Below, one piece after another: positions 46,571 through 60,367 of a DNA stretch of 64,000 nucleotides. Location: positions 222,846-286,845 of IMG/VR virus record IMGVR_UViG_3300042892_002922; one strand, 5' to 3'. A program made the translations under genes and the position numbers. The notes beneath the pieces are model-generated. The model made no database searches and was not told the DNA's origin. It was given only the letters and a program-made list of their open reading frames with translations. The stretch is from a virus (taxonomy: Duplodnaviria > Caudoviricetes). Every line of letters starts with the position of its first letter. The first letter of the stretch is position 1.

Positions 46571-46759
46571 ATGCTGGATCTTACACCAGATGACATCGAA
46601 ATCAACCCTAAAGAAAGTAATGACACTAAAAAACCCAAACCTCAAGACGTAACATTTTGGGAAAGTTTAGATTATCTAAAAAAGTGTAGAGATATGTTAT
46701 CTATACACGAGGAGAATTACATTAACAACATGGCTTACAAATATAAACACTTAAGATAA
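46571..46759 (+). CDS. Hypothetical protein
   Basis: ORF track. Confidence 0.5.
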   Translation: MLDLTPDDIEINPKESNDTKKPKPQDVTFWESLDYLKKCRDMLSIHEENYINNMAYKYKHLR

Positions 46760-47391
46760 TGAAGGTATTAGAATTATTTGCTGGTAGTAGATCAATAGGT
46801 AAAGCTGCCGAAGAAATTGGTATGGAAGTATTTTCATGTGATCTAATTGATTTTGGTGGTATAAACTATGTCGCAGATATCAGAGAGTTTGATTACTCTA
46901 AAATACCATTTGTGCCAGATGTTATCTGGGCGTCACCACCTTGTACTGGATTTAGTGTTGCAGCTATTGGTCGTAATTGGAATCACGATAAGACACCCAA
47001 GACGGACACCGCTAGATTAGGTATTGAATTGGTAAAAAAAACCATTGAGATTATAAATCATTATAACCCCAAACATTTCTTTATTGAAAACCCAAGAGGT
47101 ATGTTAAGAAAGATGCCGATTATGGAGCAATTCAAAAGACATACTGTCACTTATTGTCAGTATGGTGATGACAGAATGAAACCAACAGACATCTGGACTA
47201 ATAGCGATATATGGGCACCAAAACCAGCGTGTAAAAATGGTGACCCTTGTCACGTTGCAGCACCTAGGGGATCTGTCACAGGAACCCAGGGTTTAAAGGG
47301 TGCATATGAAAGAAGTAAAATTCCTCACGAACTTTGTTCAGAAGTTTTAAAAAGTTGTCTCGTATATGAAAATCAAACATCCGTTAGTTAA
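46759..47391 (+). CDS. Short C5-cytosine DNA methyltransferase
   Basis: LELFAGS (motif I), WASPPC (IV), IENP (VI). Confidence 0.85.
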   Translation: MKVLELFAGSRSIGKAAEEIGMEVFSCDLIDFGGINYVADIREFDYSKIPFVPDVIWASPPCTGFSVAAIGRNWNHDKTPKTDTARLGIELVKKTIEIINHYNPKHFFIENPRGMLRKMPIMEQFKRHTVTYCQYGDDRMKPTDIWTNSDIWAPKPACKNGDPCHVAAPRGSVTGTQGLKGAYERSKIPHELCSEVLKSCLVYENQTSVS

Positions 47392-53578: not shown

Positions 53579-54070
53579 ATGATAGAAAAAATAGACAAAA
53601 TATATGTTTATTTGGATGATATTCGAACACCTACATCCAATAATTGGATTGTTGTAAGAAATTACAAGGAATTTGTTGATATCATTAATGAACATGGATT
53701 GGATAACATTGAAGTTATCTCATTGGATCATGATCTTGGTGAGACGGCTATGATTGAATATTACAACAATGTAAAAAAGAATTATGTTTTAGAGTATAGT
53801 AATATTGAGGAGAAAACCGGATATGATGCTTGCAAATACCTTGTGAGTAAAAGTATGGAAACGGGAATACCACTTCCTCAAATATATGTTCACTCCGCAA
53901 ATCCAATCGGTAGCGCTAATATGATGGGGTATATTAACAATTACTTTAAGAATTGCAGAACCCCTCAAACATGTATACAAGCAAGTACGCCACACACAGT
54001 TGATGAATCCTTATACTTATCCCCTGAAGCTAGAAAAGCAAAATGGGATAGAACCAAAACAGAAGAATAA
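53579..54070 (+). CDS. Cyclic-phosphate-processing receiver-like domain protein
   Basis: YLDDIRTP, ISLDHDLG, TGYD, HSANPIG. Confidence 0.7.
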   Translation: MIEKIDKIYVYLDDIRTPTSNNWIVVRNYKEFVDIINEHGLDNIEVISLDHDLGETAMIEYYNNVKKNYVLEYSNIEEKTGYDACKYLVSKSMETGIPLPQIYVHSANPIGSANMMGYINNYFKNCRTPQTCIQASTPHTVDESLYLSPEARKAKWDRTKTEE

Positions 54071-55098
54071 TGACACATGGATCGTTTTTTAGTGGTATAG
54101 GTGGCTTTGATTTAGCCGCTGAATGGGTTGGGTGGGAAAATAAATTTCATTGCGAAATTGAGCCCTTCTGTCAAAAAGTTTTAAATCATTATTGGCCGGA
54201 TGCGGAATTATTTGAAAACATAAAAACAGCAAATTTTGAAAAATATAGAAATAAAGTCCGAGTTATTAGTGGAGGATTCCCATGTCAACCATATTCAATC
54301 GCGGGTAAGCGACTTGGTAAGGAAGACGATCGTCACCTCTGGCCTTTCATGCTTGAAGGTATTAGACAAATCAACCCAGATTACGTCGTGGGCGAAAATG
54401 TTTTTGGCCTCACTAGTTGGAATGAAGGATTGGTCCTCGAAGAGGTGTGTCTTGACCTGGAAAACGAAGGTTACCAAGTACAACCGATTATTGTTCCAGC
54501 TGCAGGTGTCGGTGCTCCGCACAAAAGAGATAGAATCTGGATCGTGGCTTCTAAAAACACCAACAAAAATGGATGGGGAAGTTTCAAGCGGAAAATCCAA
54601 TCCAGTTTCGGGGAACAGTGGGACCTTAGCACAGGAGATTATGAGTGGTTATCAACCGACGATGAAGAAGTTGGGGCTACTACCGACGCCAACAACACAG
54701 GAGATAGAACATCCGAACGCAATATTATCACCAACGGGTCGCAGAGTAGCGCGCAATGGGGAAACTCACAGCTTGAATCTGGCGGACATGGCGATAAGAG
54801 GAATGTTACCGACAGTAATGGCGAGAGATTTCAGGGGAGCGAGATCATTGGAAGCGTTGGAGAAATCGGGCAGAGGGAAAAACAATTCCCTCCCAGATTA
54901 TTACGCACAAACTGGGAAGAGTTCCCAACTCAATCCCCGATTTGTACTGGAGATGATGGGCTTCCCAGCGAATTGGACGGAATTGCCGTTTCAAAATGGA
55001 AAAAACAAACAATAATGGCATCTGGTAATGCTATTGTTCCTAACATCGCATACAATATATTTCAAGTAATTCAACAAATGGATAAATTAACAGTATGA
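54070..55098 (+). CDS. C5-cytosine DNA methyltransferase, alpha polypeptide
   Basis: FFSGIGG (I), GGFPCQ (IV), ENV (VI), APHKRDRIWI (VIII), GNAIVP (X). Confidence 0.9.
   Translation: MTHGSFFSGIGGFDLAAEWVGWENKFHCEIEPFCQKVLNHYWPDAELFENIKTANFEKYRNKVRVISGGFPCQPYSIAGKRLGKEDDRHLWPFMLEGIRQINPDYVVGENVFGLTSWNEGLVLEEVCLDLENEGYQVQPIIVPAAGVGAPHKRDRIWIVASKNTNKNGWGSFKRKIQSSFGEQWDLSTGDYEWLSTDDEEVGATTDANNTGDRTSERNIITNGSQSSAQWGNSQLESGGHGDKRNVTDSNGERFQGSEIIGSVGEIGQREKQFPPRLLRTNWEEFPTQSPICTGDDGLPSELDGIAVSKWKKQTIMASGNAIVPNIAYNIFQVIQQMDKLTV
54398..55015 (+). CDS. Overlapping alternative-frame beta polypeptide of the C5-MTase (start uncertain; frame open from 54236)
   Basis: LLKTP/LLPTP/MLPT repeats and motif IX-like QLNPRFVLEMMGFPANWT, which the alpha frame lacks. 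Confidence 0.65.
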   Translation: MFLASLVGMKDWSSKRCVLTWKTKVTKYNRLLFQLQVSVLRTKEIESGSWLLKTPTKMDGEVSSGKSNPVSGNSGTLAQEIMSGYQPTMKKLGLLPTPTTQEIEHPNAILSPTGRRVARNGETHSLNLADMAIRGMLPTVMARDFRGARSLEALEKSGRGKNNSLPDYYAQTGKSSQLNPRFVLEMMGFPANWTELPFQNGKNKQ

Positions 55099-59229: not shown

Positions 59230-59748
59230 ATGCAAACAAAAATGATTAAAGTACATCTTAAAGATGGTAAAATTTGTACAGATTTATTTGAAACCCCATC
59301 ACAAGCAATAAAAAAATACGGCATAACAAACATCGCGAAACTAGAAGAAGTTAATGATAAAAAACTTATCATCACTAAACCTAGAGATTCGCAAATCATT
59401 TTAGAAGTTAGCAAGCGAACCGAAGAAGATTTAAAGTTATCTAAAGAATGTGGTTACACATTAGCATATACCAAACCATCAATGGATAAAATCTATAGCG
59501 GTATGGTGTTTGTTGAATCATCTGATAAAAATGTGTTGGTATCAGAATTCCAACGCTTAGAGAAGTTCGATAAACTAGTACATTATCACTGGAAGAACAT
59601 TGGTTACAAGCCGGCTAAAACTTGGAAGGTTGCTTTGTATCATAAGAATGCGAAGTTAATCACTAAAGAAGAAGCGGAGAAACAATATGGTAAATTAACT
59701 AACACCATCGGTGGTATTGGTTACATCAATAGAACAAAGGCAAAGTAA
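59230..59748 (+). CDS. Hypothetical protein
   Basis: ORF track. Confidence 0.55.
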   Translation: MQTKMIKVHLKDGKICTDLFETPSQAIKKYGITNIAKLEEVNDKKLIITKPRDSQIILEVSKRTEEDLKLSKECGYTLAYTKPSMDKIYSGMVFVESSDKNVLVSEFQRLEKFDKLVHYHWKNIGYKPAKTWKVALYHKNAKLITKEEAEKQYGKLTNTIGGIGYINRTKAK

Positions 59749-59749
59749 T

Positions 59750-60367
59750 ATGAAAATATTAAACCTATATGCTGGCATCGGCGGAAACAGAAAACTCTGG
59801 GGTGATGAACATCAAGTAACTGCGGTTGAATTAAACCCTTTGATGGCAAACATTTACAAGGATTTGTTTCCGAATGATGAATTGGTTATTGGAGATGCTC
59901 ACGAATATTTGCGTTTACATTATAAAGAATTTGATTTTATCTGGACATCTCCGCCATGTCAAAGTCACTCATCATTTCGCCATAACATATGTGTTCGCTT
60001 TAGAGGAACCGAAGCTCATTACCCTGACATGAAATTGTACGAGGAGATTATATTCCTTAAACATCATGCACAGGGATTATGGGTTGTTGAGAATGTTAAA
60101 CCATACTATGAACCGCTTATCAAAGGTAATCTTATTCAGCGACATTTGTTCTGGAGTAATTTTGATATCCCAAATATTGAAATGAAGAAGGATGTAATTA
60201 GAAAAGCACAGATACCCGACCTAGAGAAGCATCATGGTTATGATTTATCAATGTACAAGTTACCGAATAAACGTCAAGTGTTAAGGAACTGTGTATACCC
60301 AGAACTAGGTAAGCACGTATTTGATTCAGCACTTGTTAAAACCGTGGAAAATGTTACCCAAGCGTAA
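59750..60367 (+). CDS. Short C5-cytosine DNA methyltransferase
   Basis: LNLYAGIGG, WTSPPCQ, VENV, RNCV; start moved to ATG 59750. Confidence 0.85.
   Translation: MKILNLYAGIGGNRKLWGDEHQVTAVELNPLMANIYKDLFPNDELVIGDAHEYLRLHYKEFDFIWTSPPCQSHSSFRHNICVRFRGTEAHYPDMKLYEEIIFLKHHAQGLWVVENVKPYYEPLIKGNLIQRHLFWSNFDIPNIEMKKDVIRKAQIPDLEKHHGYDLSMYKLPNKRQVLRNCVYPELGKHVFDSALVKTVENVTQA

Follow-up and report, generated by a model that had tools for sequence, protein, structure and literature searches.

A stretch of 64,000 nucleotides (hereafter the window) from an 80.6-kb IMG/VR virus record, estimated at about 20% complete, contains on its plus strand a 342-codon open reading frame at 54070-55098, which we designate alpha. 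Alpha matches the DNA (cytosine-5) methyltransferase family PF00145 at an E-value of 9e-41 and PHROG family phrog_363 at 1.7e-65. It carries motif I (FSGIGG, residues 7-12, 54088-54105), motif IV (GGFPCQP, residues 68-74, 54271-54291, including the catalytic Cys72), motif VI (ENV, residues 109-111, 54394-54402), motif VIII (QP..VPA..VGAPHKRDR, residues 138-155, 54481-54534) and motif X (GNAIVP, residues 319-324, 55024-55041). Where the TRD and motif IX should be, alpha instead has about 110-145 non-conserved residues, predicted to be disordered; residues about 167-275 of this stretch (54568-54894) are rich in Gly, Ser, Asn, Glu, Thr and Asp. The ATG of alpha overlaps the stop of an upstream cREC_REC-domain gene (TAATG), its stop overlaps the ATG of the next ORF, and a DEDDh-type exonuclease gene follows. 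No restriction enzyme was recognized nearby, and we therefore read the gene as an orphan phage methyltransferase.

The +1 frame of the same DNA is open from 54236 to 55015 (plus strand; 259 codons plus a stop, with a TTG start and the first ATG at 54398, residue 55). We designate this frame beta; the third frame is full of stops. Beta matches PHROG 1008 (phrog_1008), also named 'DNA methyltransferase', at 3.5e-21. A recognition region is proposed at residues 105-195 (54548-54820), built of LLPTPT-type units: LLKTPT (residues 105-110, 54548-54565), LLPTPT (148-153, 54677-54694) and MLPTVM (190-195, 54803-54820). Toward its end lies a motif-IX-like segment, QLNPRFVLEMMGFPANWT (residues 231-248, 54926-54979). 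The initial annotation, which described a C5 methyltransferase lacking a TRD and motif IX in its main frame together with a nested frame bearing repeated units and a motif IX equivalent, is correct in every element of its observation. Its statement that the beta chain of M.EcoHK31I, with motif IX, is encoded in an alternative frame within the alpha gene is likewise borne out (PMC2836561, PMC3404938).

The TRD and motif IX identity of beta rests on pattern, position and modelling. Pfam returned no hit even at an E-value of 10 for beta, whole or in parts, and a profile of beta searched against PDB sequences gave only chance hits at E>0.4. The segment LNPRFVLEMMGFP fits the motif IX pattern and is modelled against motif X, but in the absence of any Pfam score these observations leave undecided whether beta carries motif IX in the manner of M.EcoHK31I. 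Within the proposed recognition region, T108, P109, L148, T151, P152, P192 and T193 are invariant in a 5-sequence alignment; in a 36-sequence alignment T108 is invariant, and L106, P109, T151, L191, P192 and T193 are at least 90% conserved. In the motif-IX-like segment, L232, P234, F236, V237 and E239-P244 are invariant. Relatives possess from 3 to more than 10 LLPTPT-type units.

The initial annotation had specified that its reading would fail if the second frame were not open in homologs; we examined this, and the frame is conserved as open in about 95% of 160 homologous loci. A search of phage records at the DNA level, near and distant, found only short patches. A tblastn search with the C-terminal part of beta, however, found methyltransferase genes of Bacteroides phages BS-TP4 and BKO1-TP3, a gut metagenomic phage and about 48 Paenibacillus larvae phages. 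In the Bacteroides phages, the annotated CDS is the alpha frame with the same low-complexity middle, while a +1 frame of 329-379 codons holds the LLPTP repeats and LNPLFV.EMMGFP..WT. In Paenibacillus phage Shelly (gp55 and gp56), GenBank annotates both genes, the second as 'g55 internal gene'; these pairs show the same two-frame architecture and the same beta family at about 36-38% identity, and the genome paper lists two cytosine methyltransferases without comment (PMC6070908). A scan of IMG/VR found at least 547 related loci, and of the best 80 (beta 35-52% identical), 77 have the alpha N- and C-parts in one uninterrupted ORF with beta in the +1 frame, open for 210-379 codons. Among 229 matches in bacterial genomes, 75 of the best 80 show the same layout, for a total of 152 of 160 loci; most are Bacteroidota, with some contigs labelled Proteobacteria, Chlamydiia, Cyanobacteria, Planctomycetota or Saccharibacteria. 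Beta-like ORFs have been called as proteins in 4510 clusters at 50% identity (E<=1e-3; 1928 at E<=1e-10), are typically 250-350 aa in length, and start about 8 residues upstream of the TTG in the window. A few database proteins (P0075, P0113 and P0115) fuse alpha-frame and beta-frame parts at other points; these were not traced to their contigs and could be assembly frameshifts or real variants. Literature searches found no description of the family or of the Paenibacillus internal gene, although GenBank annotators of these phages noticed the latter.

Both frames show evidence of selection. To assess openness, one protein was held fixed and its synonymous codons were redrawn from the codon usage of each locus. 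For the window, 8.9 stops are expected in the beta frame over the motif IV-VIII stretch and 10.5 in the alpha frame over the linker; none is present, and 0 of 1000 trials were open in either case. Across 73 loci the corresponding expectations are 5.4 and 7.0 stops, again with none observed, and the median probability of openness is 0.001 and 0, respectively. Synonymous-site constraint, which had been put forward in advance as a way to check the dual coding, was measured as third-position entropy at conserved fourfold alpha codons in 36 sequences with less than 65% alpha identity. These sites are free in the alpha-only N-terminus (residues 1-55, 1.60 bits) and after the beta stop (residues 316-342, mean 1.65 bits), but fall to 0.79 bits at residues 95-148 (p 2.5e-6) and to 0.28 bits at residues 276-315 (p 7e-5). 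These two stretches are where beta has its conserved N-terminal domain (residues 35-95, 54338-54520, encoded over alpha motifs VI-VIII) and its motif-IX-like end. Alpha residues 276-315 (54895-55014; W..FPTQSPIC.GDDG...LDG...KW) are encoded on the same bases as the latter segment, with both frames conserved. In the 36-sequence alignment of alpha, F7, G9, I10, G11, G12, P71, C72, Q73, E109, N110, V111, R153, R155, G319, N320 and A321 are all invariant, whereas the linker has no conserved residues at all, its only constraint being the absence of stops.

In all 81 loci examined for this purpose, the beta frame opens before alpha residue 63, just upstream of the motif IV codons. Most have an ATG 71, 68 or 38 nt before the Cys codon, followed by a recognizable N-terminus (M.TS.KQISLFTEE or MQT.L.FSQEDSPANH). 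The window has ATA where its closest relative has that ATG, so that its beta depends on a non-ATG start. TTG 54236, three codons upstream, is the probable start, being the only one that keeps the conserved N-terminal domain, with GTG 54269 as the next candidate; the choice remains uncertain, but the first ATG (54398) would remove half of that domain. The upstream bases are A-rich with no Shine-Dalgarno sequence, which is usual for Bacteroidota. In the Firmicutes phage, a GGGAGG lies 12 nt upstream of the beta ATG.

An AF2 model of alpha alone gives a confident Rossmann-type large domain (residues 1-166, 54070-54567, pLDDT about 90), for which the best Foldseek match is M.HhaI (2uz4_A; E-value 1.6e-14, 165 columns, rmsd 2.6 A, 31% identity). 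Residues 167-311 have no secondary structure (pLDDT 32-40), and residues 316-342 (55015-55095), comprising motif X and the C-terminal helix downstream of the beta stop, are again confident (pLDDT 81-91). TRD and motif IX are not found between motifs VIII and X of this chain. Beta alone folds with low confidence (pLDDT 53.6), too poor for a fold search, apart from two helices (residues 36-44 and 51-61) and a hairpin (71-92, pLDDT 71-79). Modelling of the alpha-beta complex, also suggested beforehand as a test, scored 0.87 against 0.00 for the best of 3 controls, a mark reached by 58 of 80 solved complexes and 2 of 110 mismatched pairs, although these counts hold only roughly because our own alignments were used. 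The runs agree in at least 75% of contacts, and the pLDDT of the partner is at least 56. Beta 49-91 contacts alpha 136-152 and 333-334 with the lowest expected error; the lowest-error contacts join beta 87-89 to alpha 140-143 (the motif VIII strand), beta 56-60 to alpha 333-334, and beta 234-248 to alpha 314-324 (motif X), the last segment also contacting alpha residues 10 and 37. Alpha residues 276-315 likewise contact beta. The motif IX-X part of this model may reflect memory of solved single-chain C5-methyltransferases. The N-domain contact, by contrast, has no solved counterpart of which we are aware, and coincides with the stretch where the synonymous sites of alpha are frozen.

A natural variant is informative. 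In a metagenomic phage contig (L168), the alpha frame stops about 25 codons after motif VIII, and the +1 ORF (P0106, 660 aa) carries the N-domain, more than 10 LLPTP units, LNPQFVAEMMGFP, and then FPTQSP...GNAICPQV (motif X), all in one frame. As with beta, Pfam returned no hit for P0106. In this contig no active enzyme can be made without translating the beta frame, and the tether is dispensable. It also shows the two peptides that overlap in the window (SQLNP... and FPTQSP...) side by side in one chain, so both are real peptides.

Taken together, these results strongly favor a two-subunit, orphan phage DNA (cytosine-5) methyltransferase encoded by two fully overlapping same-strand genes. In this view, alpha would be the catalytic chain, with motifs I-VIII joined to motif X by a disordered tether whose sequence is only a by-product of the other frame. 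Beta would start on its own inside the alpha message and supply what alpha lacks: an N-terminal domain that docks on the motif VIII strand and C-terminal helix of alpha, a DNA-recognition region built of LLPTPT-type units, and a motif-IX-like segment that packs against motif X. The heterodimer would methylate phage DNA, presumably to protect it from host restriction. The openness of both frames, the conservation of the layout, the selection on both frames and the C5-methyltransferase large-domain fold predicted for alpha are demonstrated by the present analysis, whereas independent initiation of beta, heterodimer formation (from a model only), the assignment of sequence specificity to beta and the anti-restriction role are inferences; we have no direct evidence of expression of either chain, of binding or of methylation, the target sequence was not determined, and whether both chains are needed for methylation was not assayed. 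The initial annotation offered either a heterodimeric or a frameshift-switched enzyme; the heterodimeric interpretation is supported and the frameshift alternative is not. It also requires amendment in that beta is not just a motif-IX chain as in M.EcoHK31I, since the N-terminal docking domain and the whole repeat-built recognition region are assigned to it as well.

Of the alternatives, the one that survives best, though unlikely, is that alpha is self-sufficient, its linker acting as a loose DNA-binding region, and that beta is a real but separate protein, either a modulator of specificity or activity or a protein with an unrelated role. Alpha does have every catalytic and AdoMet-binding motif, and neither Pfam nor PDB sequence searches see beta as methyltransferase sequence. 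However, the linker is unconserved and predicted to be disordered, and in known structures all specific DNA contacts come from the small domain (PMC3404938), which alpha lacks. Furthermore, the end of beta is a close pattern match to motif IX and is modelled against motif X, and in L168 motif X itself sits on the beta chain. Less likely still is a single canonical chain made by two programmed frameshifts, +1 just after motif VIII (near 54545-54570) into the TRD/IX frame and then -1 near 55000-55006 back into the motif X frame. The order of conserved segments along the DNA (I-VIII, TRD, IX, X) is that of a normal C5-methyltransferase, A-rich runs lie at both switch points, and an A_AAA_AAC heptamer (55000-55006) three codons before the beta stop would land exactly in the alpha frame. 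This heptamer is probably due to chance, as only 3 of 36 relatives have any such heptamer in the last 20 beta codons and none has it at this place, and no recognizable +1 site is present. Moreover, this model needs neither the alpha linker nor the roughly 100 beta codons upstream of motif VIII to be open, yet both are kept open in about 95% of 160 loci; beta residues 35-95, which such a chain would never contain, are under protein-level selection, and beta has a conserved start region of its own. An artefact, whether two compensating sequencing errors (both switch points lie near A-runs, which are error-prone on some platforms) or a decaying pseudogene of an ordinary single-frame methyltransferase, is excluded by the recurrence of the identical frame structure in about 150 independent, diverged loci from isolates, MAGs and viromes, by openness far beyond chance in both frames, and by the lack of any single-frame relative among the 150 best of the 4510 protein clusters, apart from occasional odd fusions.

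A broader reading is possible, although we hold it only tentatively: that the nested layout is an ancient, obligate architecture of a very large phage and prophage family, with 4510 protein clusters matching beta across several bacterial phyla. In such a family, a 260-380-codon same-strand overlap would be maintained with protein-level selection on both frames, the 110-200-residue tether of alpha would have no sequence requirement of its own except the absence of stops, and beta would act as a modular specificity subunit whose number of LLPTPT units (3 to more than 10) sets the target. If so, this would be the largest and longest well-supported family of overlapping genes in prokaryotic viruses, and a C5-methyltransferase counterpart of a separate specificity subunit.

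Long same-strand overlapping genes in bacteria and phages are rare and often disputed. Here, both frames show selection that can be measured, and the function of each product is readable. Gene callers keep only one of the two ORFs, or label the other 'hypothetical', and as a result phage methylomes and anti-restriction capacity are mis-annotated in many genomes. The family generalizes a single experimental precedent, M.EcoHK31I, and offers natural split C5-methyltransferases with catalysis and recognition on separate chains, which could help to engineer targeted methylation. It is also a clean system for studying how two proteins evolve on the same nucleotides and how internal initiation inside a translated ORF is achieved.

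M.EcoHK31I (E. coli HK31, YGGCCR; Lee, Kam & Shaw 1995, as described in PMC2836561 and PMC3404938) is an alpha/beta C5-methyltransferase in which both chains are required, the beta gene lies entirely inside the alpha gene in another reading frame, and beta starts by internal initiation. Sequence homology between the two systems was not examined, and a search of plasmids found 4 records, none of them M.EcoHK31I. In that enzyme, alpha is reported to contain the predicted TRD and beta only motif IX, and the enzyme belongs to an R-M system; here, alpha has no conserved or folded region between motifs VIII and X, the 259-residue beta is assigned the docking domain, the whole recognition region and the motif-IX-like segment, the overlap is 780 nt, and the gene is an orphan in a phage. 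M.AquI (CYCGRG) is a naturally split enzyme whose larger chain holds motifs I-VIII and whose other chain holds part of the variable region plus motifs IX-X (PMC3404938). L168 has exactly that division of motifs, whereas in the window motif X stays on alpha, reached through the tether, and the two genes overlap completely rather than lying one after the other. In comparison with monomeric bacterial C5-methyltransferases such as M.HhaI and M.HaeIII (PDB 2uz4, 1dct), the modelled alpha residues 1-166 superpose on the large domain and the PCQ, ENV, RxR and GNA motifs are all present, but the small domain (TRD plus motif IX) is missing from the chain and, in our reading, is encoded in the +1 frame of the same DNA.

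In four diverged relatives, one or two in-frame stops plus a codon are inserted in the alpha frame exactly between the FP and CQ of motif IV, namely at loci L029 (1485-1511), L037 (1488-1514), L117 (338-364) and L136 (1488-1514). The resulting translations read GGFP-stop-PCQP, GGFP-stop-LCQP and GGFP-stop-stop-PCQP, the stops being TGA, TAA, or TAA TGA. The insertions lie just before the catalytic Cys, and the beta frame stays open; in two of the four loci, Pro codons flank the stop(s). A recurrent insertion at one site suggests recoding, a hop, or a deliberate split of alpha rather than random decay. Single stops in alpha also occur in loci L091, L166 and L022: a Tyr codon changed to TAG in the motif VIII region, a Trp codon changed to TGA after motif I, and a TAA in the linker. 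About 5% of loci look like decaying copies. In locus L003 (MT835926), the alpha frame has TGA (2345-2347) at the position of the conserved Trp of FSKW, just before motif X, and the upstream part of the same ORF carries a large insertion before motif IV. This could mean either that TGA is recoded as Trp in that gut phage or that the gene is a pseudogene. Three database proteins, P0075, P0113 and P0115, join alpha-frame and beta-frame sequence at three different points, that is, after motif I, after motif VI, and inside the linker, and are either assembly frameshifts or real fused variants.

Within the window, the gene immediately upstream of alpha (53579-54070, + strand), which is translationally coupled to it through a TAATG overlap, has a cyclic-phosphate processing receiver domain (PF20274, E-value of 4.6e-24). 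Two further short PF00145-like ORFs occur on the same strand, at 46759-47391 (+) and 59711-60367 (+), encoding 210 and 218 aa with E-values of 6e-11 and 1.2e-7. Both have motif I and an SPPC(T/Q) motif IV but no room for a TRD, and neither contains a nested same-strand ORF of 70 aa or more. This phage fragment therefore carries three C5-MTase-like genes.
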